Below, piece after piece: positions 8,163 to 28,593 of a stretch of DNA of 64,000 bases; positions within the stretch are counted from its first letter, which is position 1, and each line of letters starts with the position of its first letter. The stretch is from an uncultured Methanosarcinales archaeon (GTDB lineage: Archaea; Nanobdellota; Nanobdellia; Woesearchaeales; UBA9642). Under the pieces are notes generated by a model. It ran no database searches and was not told the origin of the DNA. It was given only the letters and a program-made list of their open reading frames with translations. Where the stretch lies: positions 7,232 through 71,231 of the forward strand of contig CAZQDS010000001.1 of assembly GCA_964591655.1 (NCBI GenBank), read 5' to 3'. Both the position numbers and the translations under genes were made by a program.

Positions 8163-8319
8163 ACAGCAATAGAATGAGACCCGTTATTTAAATTTAATTG
8201 TGATACATGACAATACGTAGCGCCATATATTGTGCTCAGGCAAGCACACAGATATATTGAGAATATAGTAAGATTTATAAACCGCAACAACGAAGAATTT
8301 ACATTAATTAACGACAAAG

Positions 8320-10002
8320 GTGAGCGTGATGCGTAAAGGACAATCTTCAAGCAGCGCAGCTGCATTTATCGCAATAATGACTGTGATAATCATTCTATAC
8401 ATATTATTCCTGCCTCCAGACATCAGGGAAGATCTTCTGTCTGACGGAAGTTCAGGTGGTGGAGGAAGCGGCGGCGGAGGCACAGGCTCAGGCACAACAA
8501 ATGTGTTGTTGAGGGAGACTGTAGGAAAAGTCTCATACCTCAAGGATACAGAAAAATATTATGACATACCCACCGTACGTGTCTATGCACCGACTTCTGG
8601 ACAGTTATTGAAAGGCGTCCCTTCGATTTTCATAAAGAATGCGTTGTTTGACAAGACACAATCGACATATAATATGAATTTTGATATAGACAAAAAATCT
8701 ACGACCAATATAATGTTGAGCTTCAACGTTAAAAACCATTACGGCCCATTATCGATATCATTGAATGATAGGGAGATATTCAATGGTGAAGTCGATGGCA
8801 ATAAGTTCTTAAGGATATCCGATTCAGACATTTTCGGGACTAATGAATTGAAACTCAGCGTCCCTAATCCGGGAGTGGTATTCTGGAAATCGAGCACGTA
8901 CAGCATAGAAAATCTTCAGATAACGGGTGATGTGACCGACTACAGCAGCAGCGTATCTTCACAGAGGTTCACTTTGACACAGACAGAAAAAGATAACCTA
9001 GAATCCGTGACCCTCTATTTCAGGCCGGTATGCACTATATCAGAAGTCGGGCCATTAGAGATACAATTGAACAAGAGGGTAATATTTGACTCTGTTGCAG
9101 ATTGTGGAACAAGAAGTTTTGCATCGCTGGACATAAACGAGATTGATGCAGGTTCAAATGAACTGAAGTTCAGCGTGGAGAAGGGATCATACCTATTGGA
9201 CAATCTTGCTGTAAAAGTGGATCTAGAGAAGCCCACATACAAGACATATTTCTTTGACATAGATGATGAATTCTTCATCAAGGACCCTGAACAGGCGAGA
9301 TGCGGCGATTATGACGATATCTGCCCGTCAGGATGCTCAGACATAAAGGATGCAGACTGCTGTTTCAGGCATAACGGGAATTGGTGCGCACTTCCGACAA
9401 GAAATGCAAACGACAGATGCGTATATTATGTCGATCCAGGTGATTGCGACCTTTGTCCGACAGGCTACTATGATGATTCATTCGACGTCCCAGACACCTG
9501 TGAAGAGAGGTGTGGAGACAATGATGACGGCATATGTCCTGAAGACTGCCCGAGCCCGTCAAGCGATTATGACGCAGATTGCTGTTATGAGGAGAACCCT
9601 GATTATTTCTTCTGTCAAGAAGTGCCTATAACAGGGTTGACGGATAAATGTAGGGCATCAGTCAGCTATACACAATGTGAATTATGCCCTTCAGGATATG
9701 AAGATGAAGACGGATCTGAGCCGGATTCCTGCGACGGCAGCATATATGAATATGAAGAGCTTGATGAATCGTTGGATACTGATTATGAAATGAGGCTTGT
9801 CGTCAGGTTCGTCAATGACGAGGACAGGAAAAGGATTGACGTAAACATAAACGGACATAAAGTGTCTATCGATACTAGGGAAATAGAATTCAAGAGGAAT
9901 ATCGATGATTACGTCAGGTCAGGAAGCAATAGCATAGAGCTTATTCCAAGAGAGGATGTAGACATCGCAGAATTACGGATTGAACTGATAAAGGTAAGCT
10001 GA
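8320..10002 (+). CDS. secreted/anchored Cys-rich repeat protein
   Basis: N-terminal TM/signal, then a Gly-rich linker (GGGGSGGGGTGSGT). The C-terminal half has two ~70-aa internal repeats with 'ICPxxC...DADCC...C(D/E)LCP(T/S)GY(Y/E)D...D(T/S)C' spacing. Confidence 0.5.
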   Translation: MSVMRKGQSSSSAAAFIAIMTVIIILYILFLPPDIREDLLSDGSSGGGGSGGGGTGSGTTNVLLRETVGKVSYLKDTEKYYDIPTVRVYAPTSGQLLKGVPSIFIKNALFDKTQSTYNMNFDIDKKSTTNIMLSFNVKNHYGPLSISLNDREIFNGEVDGNKFLRISDSDIFGTNELKLSVPNPGVVFWKSSTYSIENLQITGDVTDYSSSVSSQRFTLTQTEKDNLESVTLYFRPVCTISEVGPLEIQLNKRVIFDSVADCGTRSFASLDINEIDAGSNELKFSVEKGSYLLDNLAVKVDLEKPTYKTYFFDIDDEFFIKDPEQARCGDYDDICPSGCSDIKDADCCFRHNGNWCALPTRNANDRCVYYVDPGDCDLCPTGYYDDSFDVPDTCEERCGDNDDGICPEDCPSPSSDYDADCCYEENPDYFFCQEVPITGLTDKCRASVSYTQCELCPSGYEDEDGSEPDSCDGSIYEYEELDESLDTDYEMRLVVRFVNDEDRKRIDVNINGHKVSIDTREIEFKRNIDDYVRSGSNSIELIPREDVDIAELRIELIKVS

Positions 10003-10009
10003 TCCTAAA

Positions 10010-11974
10010 ATGAGATTTCTAGGACGATTGGTGGGAAAAACAGAGGTGGCTAAAGAGAACATTAAGGACGAGATAAATACACGTATAGATAATACGAAGC
10101 AGAATTGGAGTGATTTCAAGCAAAGGACTTCTGAAAGATATGATTCTGCAAAAGAAAAGACCCGTACATTCGCCAATAATGTCGCTCATCCGATAGATTA
10201 TTCTAAAAGGAGTTTTGAAGAAGGGCGAGCAGAGGCATTAAGGGAGCGAGAAAGAGAGCGCGAGCTCATAGAAGAGAGATTCGCCCGTGAATTAGAATCT
10301 GAGAAGAGAAAGATCCAATCAGCATCATCTAACAGGGAGAAGATGTTGGGCGCTGCAGCCATTGTCGCGCCTGAAGCAGGCCCTGCAATAGGGATGGCTG
10401 AAGAGAAGATGCATGAGAAAGATAATAAGAAGATTCAGAAAGAAGAAGAAAAATTGATGAAGAAGGAAGAAAGAGAATTGGATAAATCTAGCGGTAATGA
10501 TAAGAAATTCATGAACCGCATTGATGACTTGAGACAGGGCCCCAGTAGGGGCAGCGGATGGATGCAGAGGGGGCCAGGGATATTGTTCATACTTGCAGTT
10601 TTCGCATATTTCTTCGACTTGTTCACGGGATTCACTAGGCCGCCGAATTATGGCGTCATCCTACTCTATGGATTCATGATAATCATCGCAATGATTATGA
10701 CAAAAGTGTCGACCAATAAGTGGGTTAAAGACAGTGATTTTATGGGTTTTGTTGCGGCCATAGCATTCACTGTTGCATATCCATGGGTCATTGATGTGTT
10801 GAGGGAAAATATTCCTTATCAATTCTTGGTGGACCTGTTAGGACCGTTCCTGCTGTTCCCTCCAATGATAATGTATCTGATGTTCAAATACCCAGAGAAT
10901 AGTGCGATGCATAAGACGGCCGTATGGATAATAATTGCGCTGGCACTCTATGCTTTCTTAGTGTTATTGAATAGTCCTACGCTTCAAGGAACGACTGTTG
11001 CAGGGAAGATAACGATTACTAAACCATGGGATCTGATTAAAGACTTCGGAGGGAATGTCGTCGATGCCGCAACAGGGGCGGTGAATAATATGGAAAGGTC
11101 TTTCCAGATAGCGATAGCGAAAGCTACCGGACAAAAATATGAAGGTGAAGAAGAGGAACAGCGAGGCATCCTCATCGAGAACGTCAAAGCTGTCGAGAAG
11201 AATTATTACACGAGTTCAGACATCTATGTCCAGGGCAAGATAAAGGCGCAGAATCTTGTCGGGGAAGTGAATGTGAGGACAAGATGTTACGTCAAAAATA
11301 AGGGAAACGGGACTACGTATCCTGAGATGTTGACGATGGTGACAAACGACGAGAACATCATTGACTGCCATCTAGGGCAATTGCCGAAGGGGAATTATCA
11401 GGTGTTTGTCGCGGCAACATTCATTTTCATAACGGATGCAGACATACAGTATTATTTTGTTGATGAAAAGACACGGCCGGAACTCTATGACAAGATGAAC
11501 ATACCTGATAAAGCCATGGCCACATATACCGGAGGCCCTGTTGAAGTAGGGTTGCCTTCACTGAATCTGCCTTTAAGGCTGAGCGCTGATGGGAGCAATC
11601 CGCGCGTAGGCAATTATCCTTTCGGAGTATCTCTCACAAACAAATGGAGTCAGGGGAAGGTTAACAGGGGGATCAATTATACATTAGAGGTCCCTGACGG
11701 TTTTGAATTGAAGGAATGCAACAGGGTGCTGACTTATTCTGGCCAAAAGAGCAGCGAGAGTGGACGAAGATGGGTATATACTTTCGATACGGACGATCAG
11801 AACATAAAAGAGACATTTGATAGTGTGACATGCAGGATGCATGCAGTCAACCCTTCATCGATATTCAACGGAGATATAGTCGCAATGAAGACATTCAACG
11901 CCAGGGCAGTCTATGAGTATACTGTTGAAGGAAGCGTAAGCATAAATGTCCAGCAAGATTATTATGGAGGATGA
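10010..11974 (+). CDS. polytopic membrane protein with N-terminal charged coiled-coil domain
   Basis: About 190 aa K/E/R-rich N-terminus, about 4 hydrophobic helices (residues ~195-330), and a large C-terminal non-cytoplasmic domain. 8 bp from the upstream gene. Confidence 0.5.
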   Translation: MRFLGRLVGKTEVAKENIKDEINTRIDNTKQNWSDFKQRTSERYDSAKEKTRTFANNVAHPIDYSKRSFEEGRAEALRERERERELIEERFARELESEKRKIQSASSNREKMLGAAAIVAPEAGPAIGMAEEKMHEKDNKKIQKEEEKLMKKEERELDKSSGNDKKFMNRIDDLRQGPSRGSGWMQRGPGILFILAVFAYFFDLFTGFTRPPNYGVILLYGFMIIIAMIMTKVSTNKWVKDSDFMGFVAAIAFTVAYPWVIDVLRENIPYQFLVDLLGPFLLFPPMIMYLMFKYPENSAMHKTAVWIIIALALYAFLVLLNSPTLQGTTVAGKITITKPWDLIKDFGGNVVDAATGAVNNMERSFQIAIAKATGQKYEGEEEEQRGILIENVKAVEKNYYTSSDIYVQGKIKAQNLVGEVNVRTRCYVKNKGNGTTYPEMLTMVTNDENIIDCHLGQLPKGNYQVFVAATFIFITDADIQYYFVDEKTRPELYDKMNIPDKAMATYTGGPVEVGLPSLNLPLRLSADGSNPRVGNYPFGVSLTNKWSQGKVNRGINYTLEVPDGFELKECNRVLTYSGQKSSESGRRWVYTFDTDDQNIKETFDSVTCRMHAVNPSSIFNGDIVAMKTFNARAVYEYTVEGSVSINVQQDYYGG

Positions 11975-13369
11975 ATGAGCAAGACACATCTATTTATCGG
12001 ATTGATGATCATTCTTGTCATGGTCAGTGCGTGTGACGGACAGAAAACGACCACTAACTATCATCTGGGGACGCAAGGCATTGTGTTAGAGAAATTATCT
12101 AGCAACCCGGATATTGTTTATGAGGAAGAAACATTCGCATTCGGGATGATGCTGAAGAATCAGGGGGCTGCAGATGTCGAAGGAGGCGTCCTCATGGTGA
12201 ATTTCGATGATTTCTTCCTGGAATTAGACGATTATCAATCACAGAGCGGAAAGACACAGCAAGTGACCCTAGAAGGCAAAAGCATAGAGAGCCCTATGGG
12301 AGGGGCTGATTATCTTGAATGGGTATTCAAATCAAAAACCCTTGAGGTGATCAGGACAGGTGTCGAAAGCAAAGTGAATTTCAACGTGTGCTATAATTAT
12401 AATACTGATTTGACGACAGAAGTATGTCTCGATACACGAACAAGGACTTCAGACCAGAGGAGCTATGCCTGCAAAAGCAAGGACTACTCTAGCAATTCCG
12501 GGCAGGGGGCGCCCATATCCATAACAAAAATAGAGCCGGAGATGATGCTCGTAGGCAACAATGTCAGGCCATTATTCAGGATATACATAAAAAATGAAGG
12601 AGAAGGATATACTTTGAGCCCGGAAAAAAATCTCTGCACGAACCCTACAAAGAATGCCTCTGAACTTAACAAATTGAAAGTCAGTGCATGGATATCCGAC
12701 GATATGCCATTAGAATGCAACCCTGAAGAAGTGCGATTGGTGGACGGGGAGACTATCGCGAGATGTTATGTTGAAGATGGGGACTTGGAGGAATTCGGCA
12801 GGGAGACCGTCAATTATCTGACCATATTGCGTGTATTATTAGAATACGATTATGTGGATTCAGAAGTCATCAATCTCAAGATAAACAGGATCAATGAGAT
12901 AGACATAAAGAGTCCGAGTGTTTGCGGATATTACGAGATGCAACAGGGTGACCGATGCATACCGTTGTGTGATTTCTGCGTCAACAATCCTAATGACGAA
13001 GCATGCAAACGAAACATGAATGCATCGATCGGATTCGATTGGAACGATGCGTCTGATTTCAGATGCGCATGCAGCAAAGAAAAATGTTTGGCATTGAATA
13101 AGGAGGGGAAATGCATATTCGGATATTGTCCAGGAAGTAGCTATTGTTGCTCTACAGATGAATGCAGAGAAAAGGCCGATGGCGCCAAGTGCGGAGACAA
13201 TAATGTGTGCATCGCGAACATATGTATGCGAGGCGTGACTCAATGTGATTATAAGTTCGGCATGCAGAATTATACTTGCAACAGCAGGCCAGACTGCATC
13301 AACACCACAATAAAGACAGGATATTGCCCTGGCGATGAGAATAATGTTTGCTGCAAAACGACAAATTAG
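11975..13369 (+). CDS. lipoprotein, paralogue family member 1, with Cys-rich C-terminal extension
   Basis: Lipobox-like 'VMVSAC'; conserved core 'VCYNYNTDLTTEVCLD...SNSGQGAPISITKIEPE'. The C-terminal ~150 aa carry more than 25 Cys. Confidence 0.5.
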   Translation: MSKTHLFIGLMIILVMVSACDGQKTTTNYHLGTQGIVLEKLSSNPDIVYEEETFAFGMMLKNQGAADVEGGVLMVNFDDFFLELDDYQSQSGKTQQVTLEGKSIESPMGGADYLEWVFKSKTLEVIRTGVESKVNFNVCYNYNTDLTTEVCLDTRTRTSDQRSYACKSKDYSSNSGQGAPISITKIEPEMMLVGNNVRPLFRIYIKNEGEGYTLSPEKNLCTNPTKNASELNKLKVSAWISDDMPLECNPEEVRLVDGETIARCYVEDGDLEEFGRETVNYLTILRVLLEYDYVDSEVINLKINRINEIDIKSPSVCGYYEMQQGDRCIPLCDFCVNNPNDEACKRNMNASIGFDWNDASDFRCACSKEKCLALNKEGKCIFGYCPGSSYCCSTDECREKADGAKCGDNNVCIANICMRGVTQCDYKFGMQNYTCNSRPDCINTTIKTGYCPGDENNVCCKTTN

Positions 13370-13444
13370 ACGAAAAATATGCTTGAATACGCTAAACAAG
13401 ATTGATTTAAAAACAAAATCTTTATATACTAAAAACGTAAGGAA

Positions 13445-14671
13445 TTGATAAATATGTTTTTTATGAATAAGAGATGGGCTTTCGTATTGATGATTATAGC
13501 TGTATTAGTAATTTCTGGATGCGGCGTAGGTCCTAATCGGGGAACTAGTTATCAAAAAAAGTATTATCAAGGATATGATAGCCTGGACATAAAATTCTTG
13601 GATGAGAGCCCTCCGACAAGATTCTATTATGATTCTGAAGGGATAGACAATGAGATCCCTGTTGTCGTGGAAGTACGGAATAAGGGCGCATCAGATGCGT
13701 ATGGCGCAATATATATTCATGGATATGACCCTAAAATAGTGGAGGTTGCTGGTGGAGGGATACCTGGCCAGGGAAATATTAATTGGAACCCTGGGAGCGG
13801 AGTCCTTAACATCGGCGGCATATATATCGGACTTCCTGGCGGAGGAAACTATGGACAAGGTAATATCGGATTCATCTCTCCGAACGGAAATTATTATGGT
13901 GCGTCAGTATTTACTCAAAACAACAATTTTGTAGGGCTTAATTTGAATATAAATCTAAATAGCAACAGGATAGGTGCAAGGCTTGCAGATCCGGTATGGG
14001 GTGCGATGCAAGGGACATATGGATGGAATGCGCCTATCGCTTTAGAGGGAGACACTCCTGAAAGCCCTGGTGGAGGGATGGAAGTCTATGAATTCCCATC
14101 ATACATTTATTATCTTCCGGAATCGCTGGACCAGTTCAGGCAACCAATAATGGTCACCGCGTGTTATAGTTATGTCACTAGGGCGACAACGATGGTGTGT
14201 ATCGACCCTAAACCTAATAGCAATTCTAAAAAAGCATGCATCGCAAGAGATGTCAGCCATTCAGGAGGACAGGGCGCGCCGGTGGCAGTGACACGTGTAG
14301 AGCAGCAGGCAAGCTCTGGAAAAGTCGTATTTACAATAAGTGTCAAGCACAGTAAAAAGAATAGTCTTGATGAATTGTTCGACATTACACAATTATTCTA
14401 CAAGTGCAATCCGCATGCGGGAGCGATAGTCAAGCCTTCTGATAAGAATGTAGTGGACATATTATACGTAGAACTATCGGGAGAGGACATAACGATGAGC
14501 TGTTCTGGCGGCGGAAAGATAAGGCTAGATACGGCAGGTAATGGCCAATTCACATGTACTGCTTACATGAACCAGATGTCTGAGTCAGCATATGAAGCGC
14601 CCTTGCTTGTGGAGCTAGGATACGGTTATGGGAAAAATATTTATAAAGAGATAACTATTAAGAAGATATAA
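13445..14671 (+). CDS. lipoprotein, paralogue family member 2
   Basis: Lipobox 'VISGC'; core 'ACYSYVTRATTMVCID...HSGGQGAPVAVTRVEQQ'. Confidence 0.5.
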   Translation: MINMFFMNKRWAFVLMIIAVLVISGCGVGPNRGTSYQKKYYQGYDSLDIKFLDESPPTRFYYDSEGIDNEIPVVVEVRNKGASDAYGAIYIHGYDPKIVEVAGGGIPGQGNINWNPGSGVLNIGGIYIGLPGGGNYGQGNIGFISPNGNYYGASVFTQNNNFVGLNLNINLNSNRIGARLADPVWGAMQGTYGWNAPIALEGDTPESPGGGMEVYEFPSYIYYLPESLDQFRQPIMVTACYSYVTRATTMVCIDPKPNSNSKKACIARDVSHSGGQGAPVAVTRVEQQASSGKVVFTISVKHSKKNSLDELFDITQLFYKCNPHAGAIVKPSDKNVVDILYVELSGEDITMSCSGGGKIRLDTAGNGQFTCTAYMNQMSESAYEAPLLVELGYGYGKNIYKEITIKKI

Positions 14672-14684
14672 AGAAGGTGATCTT

Positions 14685-15674
14685 ATGAGATTAGCAAATG
14701 TATTGGCAATTTTGGCTGTTATGGCCGTTATGGTTTTGTCTGGATGTACAAACACAGACAATAGAGGCGGGAAAGCATTTATCGGCGGAACAGAAGGTTT
14801 AAGGACTTCATTTCTTGGCGGAAACCCTCCTGACGAGATATTCGATGGCGGACAATCGACTTTCGCAATCGTCGTGAAACTTGAGAATGTCGGTGAAGAT
14901 GACATGGCCGCTAATGAAGGATATGTGAAGATAAACGGTCTCGATCCTGGAACATATGGCATGGGCAATCCTAAAAAGATGATTGATGTGGCCATTCCTG
15001 GCGCAAAGAAGAATTTTGACGGTTCAGTCCTTAATGGAGGCATTGCGACTGTAGAATTCGGAGACTTATCATACGAGCCGGTAATACAAGGAAATCTTCA
15101 ACAGACAGTCTGGGCAGATATCTGTTACAAATATACTACGAGGACAACAACACAATTATGTATAAAGAAGGATCCACAATTATTGCTTGGAGACAAGAAG
15201 ATATGTGATGTTGAGGGCGAGAAGTATCCACAGAATGCCGGAGCACCTATCCAGATCACTTCATTGAAGGAGAGCTTTGCAGGAAACGGTAAAGTGGGCA
15301 TAAGCATGATCCTCAGCCACATGGGCACAGGAGATGCATTCTTCGATCCTAGAGTTAGTTTGAATGATAATGCATGTAATGATGTAGAGTCAAACACTAA
15401 CAGGGGAAGAGTACATGTAAAAGTTTTGCCTGTAAGGATTGGCGGCGCACAGATAACGCCAGTATGTACTGGATTGTCTGAGCCTTCAGGAACTAACGAG
15501 GGATATATCAGGTTATACAAGGACGGTTCTGGAAGAGAGCAGTTCAGCCTGTATTGTACAGTCGATGCATCATCAACAGACAGCATCTTTGAAGTCCCTA
15601 TTGAAGTAGAGACAGACTATCTATACTTGCAGCACTTAGAGAAAGAGATAACTATAAGGCACGTAATTGGCTGA
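14685..15674 (+). CDS. lipoprotein, paralogue family member 3
   Basis: Lipobox 'VLSGC'; core 'ICYKYTTRTTTQLCIK...QNAGAPIQITSLKES'. Confidence 0.5.
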   Translation: MRLANVLAILAVMAVMVLSGCTNTDNRGGKAFIGGTEGLRTSFLGGNPPDEIFDGGQSTFAIVVKLENVGEDDMAANEGYVKINGLDPGTYGMGNPKKMIDVAIPGAKKNFDGSVLNGGIATVEFGDLSYEPVIQGNLQQTVWADICYKYTTRTTTQLCIKKDPQLLLGDKKICDVEGEKYPQNAGAPIQITSLKESFAGNGKVGISMILSHMGTGDAFFDPRVSLNDNACNDVESNTNRGRVHVKVLPVRIGGAQITPVCTGLSEPSGTNEGYIRLYKDGSGREQFSLYCTVDASSTDSIFEVPIEVETDYLYLQHLEKEITIRHVIG

Positions 15675-15711
15675 GTATAGGATAATTTTTTATTATTTTT
15701 CTTTATTTTAG

Positions 15712-16335
15712 GTGAACAAAATGTGGCTACACAAACATGGTTGGAAGTATTATCATTCTGGTTTTGAAGAAGCATATTCTTTGTTGCAGAAATTCAGTCA
15801 GAATTTCGATAATCCTCAAGGCAGTCAAGACACAGATATTATAAAAAGCGTTGTTGCTCGAATGAAAAAACTGAATAAAGAGCTTCTAGAACATACCACG
15901 AACATAGCGCAAGAAATTCGGAAAGAGGATAATTTACTGAAGAAGATTGAGAATAATATATATGAGGTCCATCTCGTCAATAAGATTAAGAACAAGCAAC
16001 CTCTGCAAAGCTACGAGAACGAGCTCTCAAACGAATTCAAAATTATAGAAACGCTTTATTTACAATTGGAGAAAGACTGCGCAAATTCTTTAGCAATCTG
16101 TGATAAGACCAAGATTAATAAGGAATGGAATAGGGAATTGCAGGGTGAGGCCGCCACAATAATTAGCAGGCTCAAAAGCATAGAGAGCGCATCATTGAAA
16201 CTGGCAGAATACTTGAAAAAAGTGCTCCCGCAGCTTGATGAATATAAGGAATGGATCAAGAAACAGGAAGAAGGGACTGAATGGATGGAAAACTGTGTCA
16301 GGAGCTGGGTAAGAACTGCTGAAGACACAAAATAA
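15712..16335 (+). CDS. coiled-coil hypothetical protein
   Basis: 207 aa, heptad-rich, no TM segment; last gene of the same-strand block. Confidence 0.4.
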   Translation: MNKMWLHKHGWKYYHSGFEEAYSLLQKFSQNFDNPQGSQDTDIIKSVVARMKKLNKELLEHTTNIAQEIRKEDNLLKKIENNIYEVHLVNKIKNKQPLQSYENELSNEFKIIETLYLQLEKDCANSLAICDKTKINKEWNRELQGEAATIISRLKSIESASLKLAEYLKKVLPQLDEYKEWIKKQEEGTEWMENCVRSWVRTAEDTK

Positions 16336-16351
16336 TATTTCTTTTTAAGGA

Positions 16352-17308
16352 TTATCTAGAAACTGTCAATATGAATCTTGCTATAAGGCTCTCTAATTGC
16401 AGGAATTCATCGCTTCCTTCTACCATCCTGAATTCTATCTCTGCACAGTCTTTCATCATCTCTAGACGTTTTTCTGGGGTGATGTTCAGTTTCCATACTT
16501 CCTTATGCAATTGCTTTATTATGTCGATGCCTGATAATCCGTAATTGAGCATTGTGTCTAATAGTTTTGATTTGGCCTTTTCGAAGTCTTTCTTTATCAC
16601 ATGGTCGAGTATCTGGCTTATCTCTTTCGGCCTGGCGAATCCTGCAACCTCAAACACGACGGCCTCAGTTATCTTATTGCTCAATACTGCGCATGCCTGC
16701 ATTATGTTCTCGAGCTTTCTCACATCGCCTTCTGAAACTTCAACAAGTGCGTCTTTTCCGCCTGCATCTATCGATAATTTCTCTCTTGTGGCGATTGTCT
16801 CTATTATCTCGAATATCTCCTCTTTTGATAATGGCTTGAACCTGAATACTGCGCATCTTGATTGTATCGGCTCTATGATTTTTGATGAGTAATTGCAGCT
16901 GAGTATGAATCTGCATGTCTGTGAATAGTTCTCCATTGTCCTCCTTAATGCCTGCTGTGCCTCTCTCGTCAATGCATCGCATTCATCTAGGTATATTATC
17001 TTGAACGGCACATCTCCAATGGATTTTGTCCTTGCGAATTCTTTTACTTTGACTCTTATTACATCTATTCCCCTTTCATCTGATGCGTTCAATTCTAAGA
17101 AGTTTTCATGCCAAGAATCTCCATATAATTGCTTAACCACAACTAATGCGAGCGTGGTCTTCCCTACGCCTGCAGGCCCTGCAAAGAGTACATGAGGCAT
17201 ATTCTTCTGGTCGACAAACCCCTTTATCCTCTTGACAATCTCTTTCTGCCCTTTCACTTCCTTAAACGTATCTGGCCTGTACTTTTCTGTCCATAATGAA
17301 TATTCCAT
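16352..17308 (-). CDS. rfcS: replication factor C small subunit
   Basis: 'WTEKYRPDTFKEVKGQKEIV...LFAGPAGVGKTT' (RFC box II/III, Walker A), 'YLDECDAL' (DEAD-like), SRC motif region; 318 aa with no intein. Confidence 0.9.
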   Translation of the reverse strand: MEYSLWTEKYRPDTFKEVKGQKEIVKRIKGFVDQKNMPHVLFAGPAGVGKTTLALVVVKQLYGDSWHENFLELNASDERGIDVIRVKVKEFARTKSIGDVPFKIIYLDECDALTREAQQALRRTMENYSQTCRFILSCNYSSKIIEPIQSRCAVFRFKPLSKEEIFEIIETIATREKLSIDAGGKDALVEVSEGDVRKLENIMQACAVLSNKITEAVVFEVAGFARPKEISQILDHVIKKDFEKAKSKLLDTMLNYGLSGIDIIKQLHKEVWKLNITPEKRLEMMKDCAEIEFRMVEGSDEFLQLESLIARFILTVSR

Positions 17309-17342
17309 ACTATAAGAATCTGTGAAGAATTTAAAAAGTTAT

Positions 17343-19141
17343 TTACCTATCTCTCAGCATCGCTGTCAAGTAAGGCCATAATTCTGCTTCCGGATCAGAA
17401 TATTTTATCAATAGCACTTGGCTTCCTGAAGTGTTTGTGTACTCATAATATGCTCCGCCTATCGTCTTATTGACATATTCTATGTTGAAAGAGTTGTTCT
17501 GAGGAATATTCTGTCCTGTCATATTTAGATACATCAATGTCATCAATTCCTGAACTTGCTCATCATACTTCCTTTCTTCAACGCCATAAACTTTCAGGGT
17601 GTTATTGTTCAGCACATATAGTCTTTCATAATTTTTAGTCTGCGCAGCCAATCCTAAAGGCTCTGAAGGAGTATACCCGAATAGGTTTTGGAAGAATCCT
17701 ACTATTGCATTCCATATGTTGCTGAAGAATCCTCCTTCAATATTTAATTCTGAATCGCTCACCAGATAATAAAATGAGTCTAAATTGACATAAAGATATA
17801 GGGCGCCGTTGGTGGCACCATAATGCCCGCACTTCACAAATGTTGCTTCGGCATCATATCCGTCGCAGACACGATAACTTTCTCTCACAAACGAAGGGAC
17901 TATCAATTCTATGTCTAAAACATTTCCTGTCAAATCCGCGATATGTTTTTGGTACAATCTCCACATTATATCATCTGATCCATCTACATCTGTCGTCGGA
18001 TCTTCTGCATAGAATCCTGTGATTATCCTTTCTTCATCGCCCTCTTTTGATATCAGCACGCAACCGCCAGGGATGACTCCTGAATCTACGCCTATAAGGT
18101 TGTTGAATATTGCCCCAGTATCATCACAGAATATTATGTATGGTTTGTCTGCAGAGATGTTCTCTAAAACATTGGCTATTAGGAACGTCTTCGTCGTCCA
18201 TTCGCCGTTCATGCAATAATGGTTACCTTGATTCATCACGAAATTATTGTTTATGAACTGTCCATTCTTTATGCACGAGCTTCTCGAATTATTTAAAGAG
18301 TCGATGAATGCTTGTCTGTTTTCTGGAGTCGTTCCGAATGTGTTACTGACGAAACAATCACTGTCTCTTATGCAATATCCTGATTCTTCGAAGTTCCAAT
18401 CATACTTGACTTGTGCCTCTTCCCAATTGGCATAATTAGAATCATTCAATATGCACCTGTATCCTCTTGAAAGCCAATGCATCGTCGTATTTACATGAGT
18501 CCTATAATAAGAATTGATATCTATTATGCTCCATAGATTAGAATTATTAGAGATATACCATGGATCAGATGTCACACATTGGCTTCCATCCCAACAATAC
18601 TCTGCAGGACAACAAGCAGTAGTAAGGTTTATCGGAGGCTGCAACTGTTGTTGCGCATCAATCGGAGAGACTTCCTTGAACGATATATCATCGAATTTCG
18701 CTTCAGTACATCCGGCATCAACATGTATCCTCACACTTACGTTTTTGAAATATCCTTGTGATGCGTCTGGATCGCTGGCTGGAAGAAGAACGGTTTTTGA
18801 ACCGCTGGTAGTTAATCTGAATGGCACATCATTAAAACAACCAGTCTGTACCCAATTTGTTCTGCTTAAACAACGACCATCATTCAAATCAACCCTTACG
18901 ACACATCCTGCGGCGACAGTTATGTTCGCCCTCAAAGTATATTCTTTCCCTAACCTAATATCGAATGGATCTGAATAGATATCGATAGCTGTGCCCGAGG
19001 TCGTTGTGCCTACTAAAACCAATTCTTCATTCACAGACCATCCTGTGCTTGTTGTACGCCAGCCACTCATGTCTGCATAAGCGCTCGGCAATAAAACTAA
19101 TGAAATTAATGCAATAATCCATAATGTTGTATTCTTCATTT
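17343..19141 (-). CDS. large secreted Cys-rich protein
   Basis: Probable start at 'MKNTTLWIIALISLVLLPSAYA' (signal peptide), abutting the stop of the upstream giant gene. Many Cys ('TACCPAEYCWDGSQC'). Confidence 0.5.
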
Positions 19142-22100
19142 TAATTTCCGGTATTGTTTCCTTGTTGTGCACATACTGTTGGAGGACAATCGCCACCAAA
19201 CTTTCCATTCTTCAACAACTCAGTAGCAGGAGGAATAGATTTCAGGTGTAGTTCTGAAGGGGTCGCGGGATAATACGAGTTATCAACTATATCGTATGAT
19301 TGCCCTATTCCCGGAGTATATTGTCTCCATATTCCATTGAAGCAATAATAATCATCTCTGACTTCACATTGGTCATTTACATAAGTATTCACCAATTGTG
19401 GATAGCTTGTCTGATATGTTCCATCATAACTTACTCTTATAGAATAATATTTTCCTGATGGAACTTGACATCCAATAAAAGTGTTGTTGAAATATAATAA
19501 ATCAGAATAATTATAAGATTTTAATTCATCTAACATACTAAAAAATTTAGTGTTATCTTCATAATATCCGTGTGATTTCCAAACAGATTCTCCTTCAGGA
19601 ACACCTATTCCTGCAAAGCATCCGGCAGATTTATCCCATGTCGGAACAGAACTATCATTAAAGTATTCAGGATATTTAGTAGGGTCAGTAATATCCGTGT
19701 CATCTCCACAACAATGATGTCCTGTCCATATATATGGCCATTGTGCTTCACATGTTACGGCGTATCGCCCGTATCCTTCAAGCCATGCGTCATCACCGAT
19801 AAAGAATGTGTCTGTCGGATTGGTTATTTCTGAATCTAATTGAGGAATCCATGCAGCGAACCCTCCTGTACAATAATGGTTATCTGACCCGGCAGTGGCT
19901 TGTGTAGGGTCTATTGTTAAGTATATATTATCATATTTGAATTCTGCAATACTAGGGAATACGCTTCCATTTAAATCTACTTTTATTGTTTGTAGTATTT
20001 GCTGTTTATTTTCAGGTTTTATCCTTATCTTAATATGATGTGGAATCAATTCCTGATCTCCGTTTGTAGAATAAGTAGTTAATAAATCGTAAGGAACATC
20101 ATTTATATAAACTTTCCCTACCCTATTTTTACGATTGTATACTACGTCCATTTCTATATAATCAAAATAACTTAGGAAAAAATTCTTGTCATCAATATTT
20201 GTGAGAGAGTATCGCACAGATGTTTCAGTCGTAAACCTTTTTGCTAAATCATCTATTTTTGATATGCCTGATTTAAAACGATCATAGGATTTTATAATAT
20301 TATAATTGAGCCCTAATGAAAATATCCTGTTTTGTGTTATATCAACATATGGTGTTCCGCCAAACTGCTTAAAATTATTACAATCACCTACACAGCACTG
20401 TCCAAAATAATTATTTGACTCTGATGCAAAACAAGAGAAGGTGGCATTATTCTCGTTTTCAAAAAAAGAGAATGGGAAAAAAAGTTTGTCCATAAATACG
20501 CCGAAACAACAATATGTGTCATCATCAATCATCACATCTTGATCTGGCGGAGCACATATTAGGTTTTCTGTTTTTTCATAAGGCGTGCCTCCTGCCAGAG
20601 TACATTCATCCTCATTTGTTATTAGGGTTCCGAGCAGACATTCTTTATCTTCAGGATCTCCAAAACAGCATCTTTCTCCTTGAGGATACACTATTGCTCC
20701 GTTAACGCAAACATTACCTAAAGCGCAAGGAAGCCCTCTCCCAAAATCTTGCGCTGCACAAGATTTTCCTTCATCATAGGTAGATAAATCTGAACATAAT
20801 CTTTCATTTTGTTTACATATTTCCTTCAAAATCTCTTCTTCGCCAAATCCTCCCGCACCCAAACAAAAAGGATTGGTTGGGTATAACAAACAAAAATAAT
20901 TTTCTGTACTCGCATCAGAGAAACAGTAACATCCTTTTGCCGATTCTGGGTCTGCAAAAATATTTTTTGGTTCTCCATTCTCACAACAAGGATATTGTAT
21001 TGGCACATTATTACAATCATAGTGCGGATTTCCTGTTAATATTGTAGCTATATCACTACACTCCATGTTGTTTAAATTTCTATTAGGCGGTGCAGGGAAA
21101 GAATCATATTCTAACACGGGCAATCCTTTCAATCCAGTCGTTCCATCCGCATTACAATAATACCACTTGTCCGAATTTGATATATAATCGACTGTTTTTC
21201 CAGAAAAATTCAATGGAGTTATCAAGAAAGGTTTTTCTGGAGCAGATATCCACATCCATTTATCTTCTGTGCCACCATAAAAGTTTGTTTTATTGTTATA
21301 ACATAAATATTTATTATCAGGAGTTACATACCCATAGTCTCCGCCATTCAATGGAAAACTTATTCTAATATAATCTACCCATGATTCTTGCCCAGTATTA
21401 TGTGTGGTCACTCTCAAAATCCTTAATCGCACATCGTTGACTGTTATTGAACAAGATCTTTCAACACCCGGCGTTACTGGATGTAATATGACGCCATGCA
21501 TTCTGCCCGGATCGCCCACTACTCTAAGAGGGTCGCATCCCTCAACAGTGATGTCAGCGTTATTAATGAAAAATCCTGTTCCAGTATCATCCATAAAATA
21601 AACACGTAAGGTCGCGCCTGATTTTGAAGGGTCGTCATTTATCGTGAAAGTCGTCTTTTGATTATTATAAGAATAAGAAATATCTTTCATGGCACCACTA
21701 TTCGCGGTGATTAATTTCAAAAAGCCATCTTCAATAGTTGGAGAAGGATAGCCCGGTTGTGGTTGCCAACCATTACTATTATCATTGAAAGGTTCGAAAA
21801 ACAATTCGTCTTCGCTAAAGTCATCTCCGCAACAACCATCGGCACCATCATTTGCAGAAGGATTATACCAGGGCTCCATCTCTATAAGCGGTTTTATTGA
21901 GCAATTGACTCCTCCACTCGTACAATCTTCATCATCTGTGTCTGTTTTTCCATCAAAATCATTATCATATTCATCGTTACATCTTGTTTCCTTATCATAT
22001 TCGCAAACACCTATCTTGCCATTGAAATCAAGTGGTCCTGTACGGGTTTTACAATCTTCATCAAAGCAATCGACATTTGGTTCTCCGAAATTAGGATAAC

Positions 22101-22920
22101 TGTCATTTCTAGCTAAATATCCTCTTGTAGTAAAATACTTCGTATGATCATACCATGAAACATTTACACCATCATCGGCATAAGTCCAATCGACATCATT
22201 GTCACGAAAATCATTACAGATAGTCTCGGTTTCTGTAATATAAGAATTCCATACAGAAGTGTATCTACTAGGAGGCATTACTGCGGCAAACGGATAATGA
22301 TTTCTAACATCATTGCCGCTCGCATCTACAAGTCGTACACGCATGAAATCCTTGCCGCCGCTTTCATGATAAAGAATAACTATCTTATTCCAGCCGCGCG
22401 TAACAGGGATGGCGGCGCTACTCCAGCCCCCTCCAGAGGTAATTGTGAAAGTGTGGGTATATGTTTGAGTTTCTGTTGTACCGACAAGCTCAAAGACTGC
22501 GAGTGTAAATGTATCATCAACACGATAGTTTATATAAAAATCCTTGTTAGAGGCAGAATACACAACGAAATCTGCTCTGGCATAATACGGACCGGTACAA
22601 TCGCCATCATCATCAAAATCTTCTGCGCCCTGATCAGCCATACAAAATCCAGCAAAATAATTTTCGTCCCACCCACGATCACCAGAATCAGAAGCAAAAA
22701 TTTTACCTAATACGGGCTCTCCACGATTAGTCCAATCTGATGGGAAACTCGGGCAAGAAAAATCACAAGTATGATATAAAAACTGATGCTCTCCATATGG
22801 ATAATTATCCCAGAATGAATCATTATAGAAAACCGGATCAAATTCTGCTCTTACACTAACCGATAATAATACGAATAGAACAGATATCAATAACCCTTTC
22901 CAGATTAGTTTCATAAACAC
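19141..22920 (-). CDS. giant secreted Cys-rich protein (1259 aa) with thrombospondin-type-3-like Ca-binding motif
   Basis: Signal peptide 'MFMKLIWKGLLISVLFVLLSVSVRA'; 'CNDEYDNDFDGKTDTDDEDC' (DxDxDGxxDxDDxDC); repeated 'CCGDD' motifs; more than 80 Cys. Confidence 0.55.
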   Translation of the reverse strand: MFMKLIWKGLLISVLFVLLSVSVRAEFDPVFYNDSFWDNYPYGEHQFLYHTCDFSCPSFPSDWTNRGEPVLGKIFASDSGDRGWDENYFAGFCMADQGAEDFDDDGDCTGPYYARADFVVYSASNKDFYINYRVDDTFTLAVFELVGTTETQTYTHTFTITSGGGWSSAAIPVTRGWNKIVILYHESGGKDFMRVRLVDASGNDVRNHYPFAAVMPPSRYTSVWNSYITETETICNDFRDNDVDWTYADDGVNVSWYDHTKYFTTRGYLARNDSYPNFGEPNVDCFDEDCKTRTGPLDFNGKIGVCEYDKETRCNDEYDNDFDGKTDTDDEDCTSGGVNCSIKPLIEMEPWYNPSANDGADGCCGDDFSEDELFFEPFNDNSNGWQPQPGYPSPTIEDGFLKLITANSGAMKDISYSYNNQKTTFTINDDPSKSGATLRVYFMDDTGTGFFINNADITVEGCDPLRVVGDPGRMHGVILHPVTPGVERSCSITVNDVRLRILRVTTHNTGQESWVDYIRISFPLNGGDYGYVTPDNKYLCYNNKTNFYGGTEDKWMWISAPEKPFLITPLNFSGKTVDYISNSDKWYYCNADGTTGLKGLPVLEYDSFPAPPNRNLNNMECSDIATILTGNPHYDCNNVPIQYPCCENGEPKNIFADPESAKGCYCFSDASTENYFCLLYPTNPFCLGAGGFGEEEILKEICKQNERLCSDLSTYDEGKSCAAQDFGRGLPCALGNVCVNGAIVYPQGERCCFGDPEDKECLLGTLITNEDECTLAGGTPYEKTENLICAPPDQDVMIDDDTYCCFGVFMDKLFFPFSFFENENNATFSCFASESNNYFGQCCVGDCNNFKQFGGTPYVDITQNRIFSLGLNYNIIKSYDRFKSGISKIDDLAKRFTTETSVRYSLTNIDDKNFFLSYFDYIEMDVVYNRKNRVGKVYINDVPYDLLTTYSTNGDQELIPHHIKIRIKPENKQQILQTIKVDLNGSVFPSIAEFKYDNIYLTIDPTQATAGSDNHYCTGGFAAWIPQLDSEITNPTDTFFIGDDAWLEGYGRYAVTCEAQWPYIWTGHHCCGDDTDITDPTKYPEYFNDSSVPTWDKSAGCFAGIGVPEGESVWKSHGYYEDNTKFFSMLDELKSYNYSDLLYFNNTFIGCQVPSGKYYSIRVSYDGTYQTSYPQLVNTYVNDQCEVRDDYYCFNGIWRQYTPGIGQSYDIVDNSYYPATPSELHLKSIPPATELLKNGKFGGDCPPTVCAQQGNNTGN

Positions 22921-23052: not shown

Positions 23053-25260
23053 ATGAATAAGGTTTTATCATTATATATTGTCGGTTTATTGTTATTTGGA
23101 GGAATCGTATTGCTTGCAGGGTGTACCCCACAGGCACCCGCAACAGCGACTCCAGAAGGAGGAACGTATCTCGCCAATAGTACAGATATGCCTACTGGTG
23201 AAGATGCTGCCGCATTGTCTGGCAATGTAATAAGATTTAATTCTACTGCAGAATTGGATGCATTCTTGAGAGAGAGACAATCCTCTTATCCGTCTGTTTA
23301 TCGTGGCGGTGTAATGATGGATGCGATGGTGTCTGCGACTGGCGGTGCCAAAAGCGCAGGTGCTCCTGTAGCTTCTGGTGCAGAAGAGTATTCGCAGACC
23401 AATGTTCAGGTTGAAGGTGTCGATGAAGCAGACTTCGTAAAGAATGATGATAAATATATTTATTTGGCTCAAGACAATAAGCTGATAATAGTGGATGCAT
23501 TTGATGAGAAGGAGATAGTTTCAGAGACTGATCTTCCTAAAAATGCTTATGCATCAAATCTTTTCCTTTATGGCGACAAGGTTGTTGTCCTTGCGCATTC
23601 TAGTGAGGAATCTTTCTATTTCAGGAAGTATGATATAATGCCGCAGCCTTCTTATGAGTCTGTGACTAAGGTGCTGATATATGATGTCTCTGACAGGAGC
23701 GACCCGGAATTGACCGAAGATTTCAAAGTCTCTGGAGATTATTTCCAGTCAAGGATGATCGATGATGTCGTTTATCTTGTCGCGGTCAAATATGCACAGT
23801 ATCCTGTCATGCCTCCTATAATATATGCTGAAAAGATGATCTCTCCGCCGATATATTATTTTGATAATGGTGAGGAACAATACAACTATAACACTATAGT
23901 CTCAATAAATGTCGATACGGAGAAGATTGTAGATTCTGAAGTGTATCTTTTAGGATACAGCAACACTTTGATGATGTCAGAAGATAACATATACATCGCA
24001 TACCAGAAACAGCCATATAGGTGCTGGGGATGGTATTGCAGAGACAATAGTTATGACAAAGAAAGGTTTACAGAAGTTGTCGTCCCATTATTAGAGGGAG
24101 AATTGAAGAGAGACATCCAGATAGTATTGAATAGCAAGGATTCTGATGATGAGCAATGGAATAAGATATCTGAGATATTGACTGGATTCTTTGAAAACAT
24201 AAGGGACGATGAGACTGCTCAAGACCAATATGACGAGATGCTTTCAGACATACAGGACGCATTAGATGATTATGATGCGAAACAATTGCTTGAGAACTCA
24301 AAGACAGTAATCCATAAGATTTCAGTAGATGATGGTGAATTAGACTATCAATCCAAAGGAGAGGTGGATGGAAGACTATTGAACCAATTCAGCCTTGATG
24401 AATATAAAGGATATCTAAGAGTTGCGACGACTGTCGACTTGTGGATGAATACTGGAAGGAAGACATACAATAATGTGTATGTCCTGGATAAAGATATGGA
24501 TGTTGTCGGTTCAGTCGAAGATATAGCGAAGAACGAGACAATATACTCTACAAGATTCATGGGCGACAAATTATATATGGTCACTTTCAGGCAGATCGAC
24601 CCGTTCTTCGTCATTGATTTATCAGACCCCGAGGATCCGGAGATACTTGGTAAATTGAAGATCCCCGGATATTCAAGTTACTTGCACCCATATAATGAGA
24701 ATTTCATAATAGGCGTAGGTAAAGAGACTGGGGAGAATCAATGGGGCGGTGTGTCGACAAAAGGCGTTAAATTATCATTGTTTGACGTTACAGACATGGA
24801 AAAACCTGAAGAAGTAGATAAGTATGAGATAGGGATGGAAGGGACAGACAGTCCGATACTTTATGAGCATAAGGCATTCCTTTTGTTCAACAACATATTA
24901 GTCATACCGATATCTGAAGTGACTTCAAGAGAGACAGGAAGATATGGCTATGATTATAAGTATTGGGATGGCGCATACGTGTTTGAAGTCTCAGAAGATG
25001 GGTTCGAATTGCTCGGGAAAGTAAAGCACGACTCGAGAAGCACATCGTATTATGCGTGGTGGGACAGGGCATCTGTAACGCGAAGCATAATAATGGATAA
25101 TGAATTGTTCACGATAAGCAACAAGTACATAAAAGTGAACGATCTTGACAATGAATTGGACTCATTAGGAAGCATAGAACTCCCATATGAGAACAACTAT
25201 TATCCTATGTATGCGACAGGCGGCGGAGTCGCTGTTTCAGAACCTGCAATAATGGAATAA
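23053..25260 (+). CDS. beta-propeller domain lipoprotein (Beta_propel-like family)
   Basis: Lipobox 'LLAGC'; 'SQTNVQVEGVDEADFVKNDDKYIYL' matches the hallmark of the archaeal/Firmicute secreted beta-propeller family. Confidence 0.55.
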   Translation: MNKVLSLYIVGLLLFGGIVLLAGCTPQAPATATPEGGTYLANSTDMPTGEDAAALSGNVIRFNSTAELDAFLRERQSSYPSVYRGGVMMDAMVSATGGAKSAGAPVASGAEEYSQTNVQVEGVDEADFVKNDDKYIYLAQDNKLIIVDAFDEKEIVSETDLPKNAYASNLFLYGDKVVVLAHSSEESFYFRKYDIMPQPSYESVTKVLIYDVSDRSDPELTEDFKVSGDYFQSRMIDDVVYLVAVKYAQYPVMPPIIYAEKMISPPIYYFDNGEEQYNYNTIVSINVDTEKIVDSEVYLLGYSNTLMMSEDNIYIAYQKQPYRCWGWYCRDNSYDKERFTEVVVPLLEGELKRDIQIVLNSKDSDDEQWNKISEILTGFFENIRDDETAQDQYDEMLSDIQDALDDYDAKQLLENSKTVIHKISVDDGELDYQSKGEVDGRLLNQFSLDEYKGYLRVATTVDLWMNTGRKTYNNVYVLDKDMDVVGSVEDIAKNETIYSTRFMGDKLYMVTFRQIDPFFVIDLSDPEDPEILGKLKIPGYSSYLHPYNENFIIGVGKETGENQWGGVSTKGVKLSLFDVTDMEKPEEVDKYEIGMEGTDSPILYEHKAFLLFNNILVIPISEVTSRETGRYGYDYKYWDGAYVFEVSEDGFELLGKVKHDSRSTSYYAWWDRASVTRSIIMDNELFTISNKYIKVNDLDNELDSLGSIELPYENNYYPMYATGGGVAVSEPAIME

Positions 25261-25319
25261 TTTTATTTTTTTAATTATTTTAATTCTTTTAATAAGAGTA
25301 TATTAATATTATAAATCTA

Positions 25320-26012
25320 TCAATATATCTTATCTCTCTTATTCTCTTCTTTTTTTATCAATAAGAGCATCTCTTTCTCATGGCCTGCCCCGATCACTGT
25401 AAGGATTTTCTTTTCAGGATTCTTCTCCATTATCTTTACAAGATTCTTTGCCATGACAACATTCCTTTCATGTATCAGCACATTATATAGAGAAGGATAT
25501 CTGTCTTTCAACTGGTTCATCATCTCTGATATCAATTTCTCCTTCGGGACCTCGTTAAGGTTGATTTTTATCTTCTGTTTTGAGAACGGGCTTCGAATTA
25601 TATCCCATAATAATCGCATCTTTTCCTTGAACGTGAATTCTTTAGAGAACCTCTTCAATGTGATCTCTATATCTTGATCTATCAACATCAATTGCTTGTT
25701 GTTGCTCTTTGCGAGATTGACTGCCGTCAACATGTCGCTTCCCGGCTTTATACCGACGACATTACCTAATTTTCTTTGGAGGACGCCAGCAATTACCGCA
25801 AACAGGTATCCCTGCAAACCATATCTCTTTATTCCTGACAAAGAATAATCTGGTTTGGCATCTGTCAACAATGCGTGCAGCCTCTTATGGTCCAATTCTA
25901 CACAGACGATGTCAGGATCTAATCCTGAGAACCTGTCATTTATCTCCTTGACAGACTGTCTAGCGATGTGACTCGTCCCTATGATGAGAAGATTCTTGTA
26001 ATGCTCCGTCAT
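25320..26012 (-). CDS. TraB/PrgY-family protein
   Basis: 'LLIIGTSHIARQSVKEI...PDIVCVELDHKRL' is a TraB family signature (GTSHVS...VELD). Confidence 0.5.
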   Translation of the reverse strand: MTEHYKNLLIIGTSHIARQSVKEINDRFSGLDPDIVCVELDHKRLHALLTDAKPDYSLSGIKRYGLQGYLFAVIAGVLQRKLGNVVGIKPGSDMLTAVNLAKSNNKQLMLIDQDIEITLKRFSKEFTFKEKMRLLWDIIRSPFSKQKIKINLNEVPKEKLISEMMNQLKDRYPSLYNVLIHERNVVMAKNLVKIMEKNPEKKILTVIGAGHEKEMLLLIKKEENKRDKIY

Positions 26013-27877: not shown

Positions 27878-28096
27878 TTACCCCCAACGGTCATAATTAT
27901 AAAACAAATCACAGTCTGAAAAGACTTGTTGTCTAGGGGAAGTAAATACTCTTTATAAAGGTTATTATTTTGTTGCTATTCTTGAGTGAATACTATTTTG
28001 GATGTTGTTTTTAGATGTTGTTTTTAGTGCTTACATTTTTTATATTGATCCTAATATATCGGAATTTGACCAGTATTTGATGGAATCTTACAGACT

Positions 28097-28114
28097 CCTT
28101 TGTTTCTTCTGGAA
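28097..28114 (-). promoter_or_regulatory. ORB-like origin recognition box 1
   Basis: Exact 18-mer cctttgtttcttctggaa. Its reverse complement TTCCAGAAGAAACAAAGG resembles the archaeal mini-ORB core TTCCAGTGGAAAC. Confidence 0.55.
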
Positions 28115-28149
28115 ATTTGTTTTGAGTGTTTGAACGATTGTGCTTCTTT

Positions 28150-28260
28150 TTTCTCTTCTTTATTTATTTACTATATTGAAAATAATATATATAATATATA
28201 TAATATATATAATAAATAATAAATATAATAATATGTATAAAAGAAAACATATATTGAAAG
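28150..28260. promoter_or_regulatory. AT-rich duplex-unwinding-element candidate
   Basis: Run of almost pure A/T ('ataatatatataatatatataatatatataataaataataaatataataatatg') between the two ORB-like repeats. Confidence 0.5.
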
Positions 28261-28549: not shown

Positions 28550-28593
28550 GTAGTTCAGTCTATTATAAGTTATATTCGTGCTGAGGGGTTTAA

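Follow-up and report, generated by a model that had tools for sequence, protein, structure and literature searches.

Archaeal surface layers (S-layers) that carry a membrane anchor combine co-transcribed envelope proteins, immunoglobulin-like (Ig-like) domains and attachment through a stalk or a lipid, all features seen or predicted in the gene cluster described here, and large globular proteins with class III signals also exist in archaea. Woesearchaeota and Pacearchaeota rank with the most abundant and most diverse archaea that have not been cultured. Large extracellular proteins with an SLT (GH23) domain have been reported from these lineages (fam00969 in Castelle et al. 2021, PMC8204110; Vigneron et al. 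2022, PMC9723730) and proposed to serve in attachment to, or attack on, bacteria (PMC8204110; PMC9723730; PMC12352652), and DPANN archaea have predicted lipoproteins as well as the AliA family, which is implicated in lipidating them (PMC12462473). In this work, we describe a cluster of five genes, g1 to g5, on the forward strand at positions 8329-15674 of a 64,000-nucleotide stretch of contig CAZQDS010000001.1 (assembly GCA_964591655.1), hereafter the window. The names of homologues and the genome titles assign this DNA to a Woesearchaeota-type DPANN archaeon of about 40% GC. An earlier note on this DNA had proposed a same-strand operon of six genes, encoding a possible cell-surface apparatus for host attachment.

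Six forward-strand open reading frames (ORFs) are indeed packed between 8320 and 16335 (560, 654, 464, 408, 329 and 207 codons), with 7, 0, 75, 13 and 37 bp between consecutive frames. Only g1 to g5 form a unit, for which the best explanation is a five-gene transcription unit that is lineage-defining for Woesearchaeota/Pacearchaeota-type DPANN archaea; it constitutes a previously unannotated, operon-like gene set for outer-face membrane proteins, as the note had suspected. The observations are a gene set kept in synteny, whose products have membrane anchors and Ig-like folds, carry variable modules and are purged of N-glycosylation sequons. From these we infer, with a probability of roughly 0.5, a contact platform with lineage-variable heads for partner cells, a reading that takes in complex formation, the contact function and the bacterial target alike.

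Loci were collected around g5 homologues, both in assemblies and in a set with a single genome for each GTDB species; 80 of the 106 species-level hits were kept, and their ORFs were classed by iterative hidden Markov model (HMM) searches seeded with the window proteins. The genome scan relied on one g5 motif, and the cluster is accordingly found in at least 106 species-level genomes, a lower bound. The loci were labelled L001-L085, and their taxonomy was taken from record titles, some of them clearly wrong: in loci mislabelled as Methanosarcinales or Alphaproteobacteria, the replication factor RFC is still 60-70% identical to that of the window. Among the 39 loci that extend at least 7 kb upstream, 36 carry g1, g2 and three to five paralogues on one strand, which places the clustering of g1 to g5 far beyond chance, and median intergenic distances across related loci range from -2 to 55 bp. 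The paralogues that follow g2 stand in the order g3-g4-g5 in 40 of 51 loci, the remainder having an extra or a missing copy. Synteny in relatives, which the note had set as a test of its proposal, is thus kept across at least about 50 species-level genomes. The neighbourhood includes RFC in 60 of 82 loci and Pelota in 40.

Might the genes nevertheless form no functional unit and adjoin one another by chance or through recent shared ancestry? Several of the related loci do come from close relatives, in which any order would persist. However, the order is kept at 29-35% protein identity while the flanking genes change (in L004, for instance, the gene of ribosomal protein L34e follows g5), and the synteny counts refute this explanation, leaving it next to no credence. 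Median identity to the window proteins is 27-34% for the cluster, as against 44% for Pelota and 66% for RFC; the cluster proteins are constrained, yet evolve faster than cytoplasmic housekeeping genes.

The last three genes encode paralogous lipoproteins, a point on which the note was right. The products of g3 (11975-13369, forward strand; 464 aa), g4 (13454-14671, forward strand; 405 aa) and g5 (14685-15674, forward strand; 329 aa, the best conserved of the three) match one another in BLASTP (2e-18, 2e-13 and 1e-06), and they are the only window ORFs matched by an HMM of the g5 family (1e-147, 4e-34 and 2e-22). Their signal peptides end in a lipobox cysteine, in the motifs VSAC, ISGC and LSGC, respectively, and this cysteine is invariant in 44 aligned g5 homologues. 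A canonical lipobox occurs in 162 of 206 orthologues, the sampled exceptions mostly having a hydrophobic stretch that ends in G/S/A-Cys. All three are therefore classed as lipobox lipoproteins and predicted to be lipid-anchored. Each consists of two Ig-like beta-sandwiches. In the AlphaFold2 (AF2) model of g5 (mean pLDDT 91.8, pTM 0.85), each sandwich is closed by a long beta-hairpin; the protein has six conserved cysteines besides that of the lipobox and an NSGAPIQ motif between its domains. Domain 1 of g4 contains a Gly/Asn-rich insertion of about 100 aa, and g3 adds to a core of about 310 aa, matching the core length of most orthologues, a Cys-rich C-terminal tail (about 12911-13366, forward strand) that is lineage-specific, being found in 14 g3 orthologues only. 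The homologue search yielded 83 g5 homologues, and an exhaustive profile search with the g5 family 2,737 clusters at 50% identity (E <= 1e-3), nearly all of 300-350 aa. The three paralogues diverged anciently and hold fixed positions, and each lipoprotein is therefore non-redundant.

The polytopic membrane subunit is encoded by g2 (10010-11974, forward strand; 654 aa). The note had described it as a membrane anchor with a cytoplasmic K/E-rich coiled coil of about 190 aa and about four transmembrane (TM) helices; the anchor stands, but there are five hydrophobic helices (about 10565-10975, forward strand), and a conserved ectodomain of about 270 aa had gone unmentioned. In the AF2 model of residues 186-654 (mean pLDDT 83.3), the five TM helices, a count taken from this one model and from five hydrophobic segments seen in the sequence, are accompanied by a long stalk helix of 35 residues (about 11024-11128, forward strand), which ends in the conserved motif ATGQxYEGEEEEQRGI, and by two Ig-like beta-sandwich domains with four invariant cysteines (about 11165-11971, forward strand). 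Any kinship of this ectodomain with the lipoproteins would be one of modelled fold alone; the hhalign comparison between them was not significant (probability 0.2).

Some g2 orthologues continue beyond this core. Extracellular tails of at least 100 aa past the second sandwich are present in 16 of 47 complete g2 orthologues, and SLT (PF01464) exceeds its gathering threshold of 21.3 bits in those of L052 (39.4 bits), L043 (38.1 bits) and L047 (28.1 bits). The tail of L012, from a distant lineage, is borderline (20.8 versus the cut-off of 21.3 bits), and L039, L056 and L060, in which g2 is partial, have related tails. Those of L050 and L055 are GH73-like at a sub-threshold score (about 23 versus 30.2 bits); the L055 tail also matches a phage cell-wall hydrolase in the PDB (E 0.0015), in an alignment that sets KQETS against IHETG, with its catalytic-type Glu. 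In these tails, the hydrolase domain follows a Cys-rich linker. The linker is near-identical in L050 and L052, which have different muramidase types; this argues for selection for some muramidase at this place. Pfam detects no SLT or GH73 domain in the window proteins, and the window g2 is without a hydrolase tail. The tail of L048, which has no family match, appears Fn3-like by eye.

To our knowledge, Woesearchaeota-type archaea have no peptidoglycan wall of their own, and the substrate of the tails, whose murein-hydrolase activity is predicted, is therefore likely to be the bacterial wall. Host attachment, as put forward in the note, gains indirect support from these C-terminal domains on the g2 of some lineages; the function itself is what we infer from them. 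The same SLT and GH73-like tails could also be called upon for nutrient capture, in which the platform would bind extracellular polymers such as murein fragments and, with its hydrolase heads, degrade them with no stable partner. The tandem beta-sandwiches of the cluster lipoproteins recall the surface glycan-binding lipoproteins SusE/F, and the metabolism of Woesearchaeota is reduced (PMC8204110). However, no transporter gene is linked to the cluster in any examined locus, no carbohydrate-binding family was detected in its proteins and the catalytic module is absent from most lineages, and we regard nutrient capture as very unlikely.

The first gene, g1 (8329-10002, forward strand), encodes a protein of 557 aa that runs from a basic N-terminus through RKG-Q, a hydrophobic stretch, LPP and a G/S linker into three beta domains, A, B and C, which are homologous to one another (hhalign probability 96% for A and B, 80% for B and C). 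Its conserved core, defined by an alignment of 32 sequences, comprises about 400 aa. Across orthologues, the basic leader with its [KR][GA]Q-type motif is separated by 3-10 small residues from a hydrophobic helix of about 21 residues, after which comes LPP; this N-terminus is predicted to hold the protein on the membrane as a prepilin-like anchor. The note had taken g1 for a secreted Cys-rich repeat protein. Its N-terminal hydrophobic anchor is kept, and the repeats, although real, are optional: the lineage-specific insert of two tandem repeats between domains B and C (9277-9744, forward strand; residues about 320-475), which are mutually homologous (hhalign probability 99.3%, E 4e-20), is gapped out in 19 of 32 aligned orthologues and occurs in 13 of 43, all of them g1 orthologues. 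Shuffling of Cys-rich modules between subunits was considered and ruled out, the g1 insert and the g3 tail each being restricted to its own subunit.

The anchor of g1 is also the starting point of another explanation, in which g1 would be an EppA-type-processed, large pilin-like subunit and g2 to g5 its platform, together making a short pseudopilus or a pilus-tip adhesin related to type IV filaments. The [KR][GA]Q motif stands directly ahead of the hydrophobic segment in most g1 orthologues ([KR][GAS]x in 42 of 43, with Q at +1 in 26), and Gln at +1 is needed for EppA processing in Methanococcus (PMC4390842). Type IV filament (TFF) system 1, which has two platform genes, is known from DPANN archaea (bioRxiv 10.64898/2026.04.22.720090), and such a locus adjoins the cluster in L002, where two T2SSF genes, a T2SSE ATPase gene and the gene of a VWA protein lie just downstream (11683-20976 of that locus, reverse strand). 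This arrangement, downstream and on the opposite strand, is nevertheless limited to 7 of 82 loci, the number in which a T2SSE-type ATPase is encoded within 10 kb (T2SSE/T2SSF homologues, 6-7 of 82), and no T2SSE or T2SSF was found among the window ORFs scanned, RFC taking that position in the window. Moreover, only 3 of 43 g1 orthologues show the strict FlaFind-type pattern, as the motif and the hydrophobic core are mostly set apart by 3-10 small or polar residues, and we know of no type IV filament machine with lipid-anchored partners. A filament role for g1 is a weak possibility, and the explanation as a whole is improbable.

Evidence of a different kind comes from N-x-S/T sequons, which the lipoproteins lack almost entirely across orthologues. 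In 68 g4 orthologues, a single sequon is observed where 176 are expected (ratio 0.01); the corresponding figures are 15 and 188 for g5 (0.08), 23 and 112 for the g3 core (0.21), 59 and 156 for g1 (0.38), 50 and 96 for the core ectodomain of g2 (0.52) and 3 and 26 for the g2 tails (0.11). Four control tripeptide classes in the lipoprotein sets gave ratios of 0.74-1.9, and the sequon ratio in cytoplasmic-like ORFs of the same loci is 1.35. A neighbouring secreted protein of the window (621 aa) is rich in sequons (14 as against an expected 7.6); the other exported proteins that served as controls are few, 8 of them having a signal or anchor and 2 a lipobox. A purge of this kind is expected only of proteins exposed to the oligosaccharyltransferase, and it thus points to export past the N-glycosylating enzyme. 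On our reading, the products of g1 to g5 would be exported and have to stay glycan-free. Together with the invariant lipobox cysteine, the conserved cysteine pairs in g2 and g5 and the five TM helices of g2, this places all five products on the outer face of the cytoplasmic membrane, where they are tethered by three kinds of tether. A near-complete sequon purge is an unusual evolutionary signature and could help to find other glycan-free surface machines in archaea.

With five distinct tethered proteins, and lipoproteins that are not redundant, it is probable that they form one hetero-oligomeric platform. Most likely, the products of g1 to g5 would assemble on the outer face into a glycan-free complex of fixed composition, in which g1 would be held by its prepilin-like anchor, g2 by its five TM helices and stalk helix, and g3 to g5 by lipid-modified cysteines. 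Their ectodomains are built almost wholly from Ig-like beta-sandwich modules, and the modules presumed to lie at the distal end vary by lineage, with Cys-rich knobs on g1 and g3 in the window genome and SLT or GH73-like heads on g2 elsewhere. Such a platform may bind partner cells and, where a muramidase head is present, cut the bacterial wall locally. That muramidase heads were recruited suggests contact of the distal end with other cells, which in at least some lineages would be bacteria. More tentatively, the cluster could be the core of a contact machine of Woesearchaeota and Pacearchaeota, whose exchangeable heads dock onto and breach the wall of a bacterial host. If so, these archaea would be cross-domain episymbionts or predators with a dedicated, genomically recognisable apparatus, and the platform would represent a new class of archaeal interface complex.

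Several points weigh against a contact platform. Mutual binding of the five products is presumed; hydrolase tails are present in only about 9 of 50 g2 orthologues, mostly from one clade. A muralytic activity cannot be the conserved function, because many lineages, AR15 (L059; CP010425) among them, possess nothing beyond the bare core. Adhesins directed at a host are usually fast-evolving and variable in copy number. The single-copy state and even conservation of the cluster fit a housekeeping role in the envelope at least as well, and the unexplained avoidance of sequons is the opposite of what typical archaeal surface glycoproteins display.

The main alternative is a housekeeping scaffold, as which the cluster would provide a constitutive outer-face layer or spacer, acting as a wall substitute or as the anchor of an outer layer, for integrity or shape. 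It would then play no particular part in contact with partners, and the muramidase and Cys-rich modules would be opportunistic add-ons exposed on a plentiful scaffold. Its near-universal, single-copy presence in fixed order, within a core replication and translation neighbourhood, speaks for this explanation, as do a conservation only modestly below that of Pelota and FmrO and the lineages in which the bare core stands alone. The extreme sequon purge would suit tightly packed protein-protein surfaces, and the combination of lipid and stalk anchoring recalls the anchoring of S-layers by SlaB or in the lipid-anchored haloarchaeal glycoprotein. On the other hand, archaeal S-layer proteins are typically heavily N-glycosylated, the opposite of the purge seen here, and five distinct subunits are unusual for a lattice. 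The recruitment of two muramidase families at the same position, which suggests that the distal end meets bacterial wall material, also counts against a purely structural role. A scaffold of this kind is possible, if on balance doubtful; even then, no envelope component of this lineage would have been described earlier. As a contact platform, the reading that we prefer, the cluster is a lineage-wide, single-copy candidate that ties isolated reports of large SLT proteins to a conserved machine and points to bacteria as partners. It also offers testable ectodomains and a marker operon for metatranscriptomes.

The sixth ORF does not belong to the unit. A blastn comparison with the nearest relative, L089, shows with exact boundaries that g6 is a 626-bp insertion (15710-16335, forward strand) in the T-rich spacer that separates g5 from the convergent RFC gene. 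It contains a K/E-rich, helical ORF of 204 aa with its own GGTGA Shine-Dalgarno sequence, the start of which is most likely ATG 15721. No g6 homologue was found in 85 related loci; it is absent from L089 and from relatives whose g5 is 79-88% identical, in which g5 is directly followed by the convergent RFC gene. No relatives came up among the JGI metagenome contigs scanned, the exact sequence is not in the protein collection searched and PADLOC gave only a weak, sub-significant match (E 0.018). The g6 insertion is thus unrelated and strain-specific, and the six-gene composition has to be given up. As a scaffold partner, g6 is ruled out by the lack of a homologue in these loci and by its clean insertion. 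The idea of an inner scaffold of cytoplasmic coiled coils finds no support either, since g6 is not conserved and the other candidate, the K/E-rich N-terminus of g2 (10010-10564, forward strand), is the least conserved part of the cluster and varies in length and composition among orthologues: in L002, it is G/S-rich and not a coiled coil, and in several others it is short or almost absent. Long g2 orthologues contain no informative cytoplasmic domain, save a weak ZapB-like coiled coil in L029.

The start and end signals of the unit were read from the sequence. A TATA-box-like element, TTTATAAA (8274-8281, forward strand), is a candidate promoter of the cluster, located about 47 bp 5' of ATG 8329 in the spacer between the divergent Pelota (reverse) and g1 (forward) genes. 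The g1 frame is open from GTG 8320, and a GGTGA Shine-Dalgarno sequence at 8319-8323 stands five bases ahead of ATG 8329, which is probably the true start. The start codon of g3 directly abuts the stop codon of g2, and the gap between g3 and g4 contains a second TATA-like element, CTTTATATAC (13420-13429, forward strand), a possible internal promoter. The g4 frame is open from TTG 13445; ATG 13454 is most likely its start, as it gives 405 aa, in line with the 402-405 aa of orthologues in close relatives. An oligo-T-rich tract 3' of the g5 stop codon (15680-15709, forward strand), which aligns with the T-rich g5/RFC spacer of L089, likely marks the end of the transcription unit and may act as a terminator. 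The flanks are housekeeping genes, namely those of a TrmB-type regulator, an FmrO-type methyltransferase and Pelota upstream and of the RFC small subunit downstream.

Further features lie elsewhere in the window. Two large secreted Cys-rich proteins without a family match, the 621-aa protein already mentioned and one of 1259 aa, are encoded on the reverse strand at 17343-22920; they were rejected as additional members of the cluster, having homologues only in close relatives (L001 and L007). At 23053-26012, a TraB/PrgY/GumN (Tiki-like) protein is encoded next to a lipobox protein that has a Beta_propel (PF09826) domain; co-occurrence of lipoproteins with an archaeal orthologous group (arCOG) of the Tiki superfamily has been reported across archaea (PMC12462473). 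Upstream of cdc6, a 716-bp AT-rich stretch between genes (27878-28593) has a (TA)n-rich part (about 28150-28240) enclosed by two exact copies of an 18-nt direct repeat, CCTTTGTTTCTTCTGGAA, located at 28097 and 28532. With its ORB-like repeats and a putative unwinding element, this region is a candidate replication origin, and genes for PolD, MCM, RFC and primase are found in the same window. A single 524-aa ORF (52548-54122, forward strand) matches both the small- and large-subunit families of DNA primase and appears to encode a fused PriS-PriL primase.

How, then, does the cluster compare with described systems? None of its proteins in the window matches Pfam or NCBIfam at curated thresholds, which agrees with the remark in the note that no characterised domain was recognisable. 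PHROGs returned nothing at E <= 0.01 for the six proteins and PADLOC nothing significant. Searched against PDB sequences, the g1 and g5 family profiles gave no match, and that of g2 insignificant ones only (best E 0.037). The structural models consist of tandem Ig-like beta-sandwiches, with no well-known enzyme fold among them. Structural matches to the class II fusogens HAP2 and archaeal Fusexin1 were dismissed as Ig matches of the domain-III type; the cluster proteins do not fit the fusogen type, a trimeric protein that has an elongated ectodomain of three domains, fusion loops and a C-terminal TM anchor. In the searchable literature texts, no prior description of the cluster or of its conserved core was found.

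The top Foldseek match is to the WxL/WxLIP loci of Enterococcus and Lactobacillus (PDB 9i1y and 9i25), at the level of the fold, with a TM-score of 0.21 and 7% identity. Those loci are bacterial, whereas a WxL domain, an LPXTG partner and anchoring to peptidoglycan are all absent from the archaeal cluster, which differs in its anchors and in subunit number; Pfam identified neither a DUF916/DUF3324 WxLIP protein nor a WxL-domain partner among the window proteins. The likeness is best regarded as an analogy of design and not as membership. Archaeal S-layers, such as SlaA/SlaB of Sulfolobus and the S-layer glycoprotein of haloarchaea, have one or two subunits as against five here, and sequons are enriched in S-layer glycoproteins but purged in the cluster. 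No S-layer protein is among the top fold matches listed, and none was matched by sequence among solved structures. With class III signal proteins, including the Epd pilins of Methanococcus and the bindosome of Sulfolobus, g1 shares the basic leader, G/A at -1, usually Q at +1 and the hydrophobic helix, but its spacer mostly breaks the FlaFind rule and most genomes have no linked ATPase or platform. The published SLT proteins are closest in biology, coming from the same organisms, with the same proposed role and catalytic family, and the g2 proteins of L043, L047, L052 and possibly L012 are membrane-anchored SLT proteins; the published ones are, however, described as single large proteins and not as a five-gene cluster, and the window g2 and most of its orthologues are without SLT. 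The WxL/WxLIP loci, the anchored S-layers and the class III signal proteins are the closest analogies: each shares a design principle with the cluster, and the tests speak against membership, less clearly so for the signal of g1. The individual building blocks, namely the Ig-like sandwich, the lipobox and the signal anchor, are ordinary; the composition is rated new because the five families and their fixed combination are new and belong to no described system.

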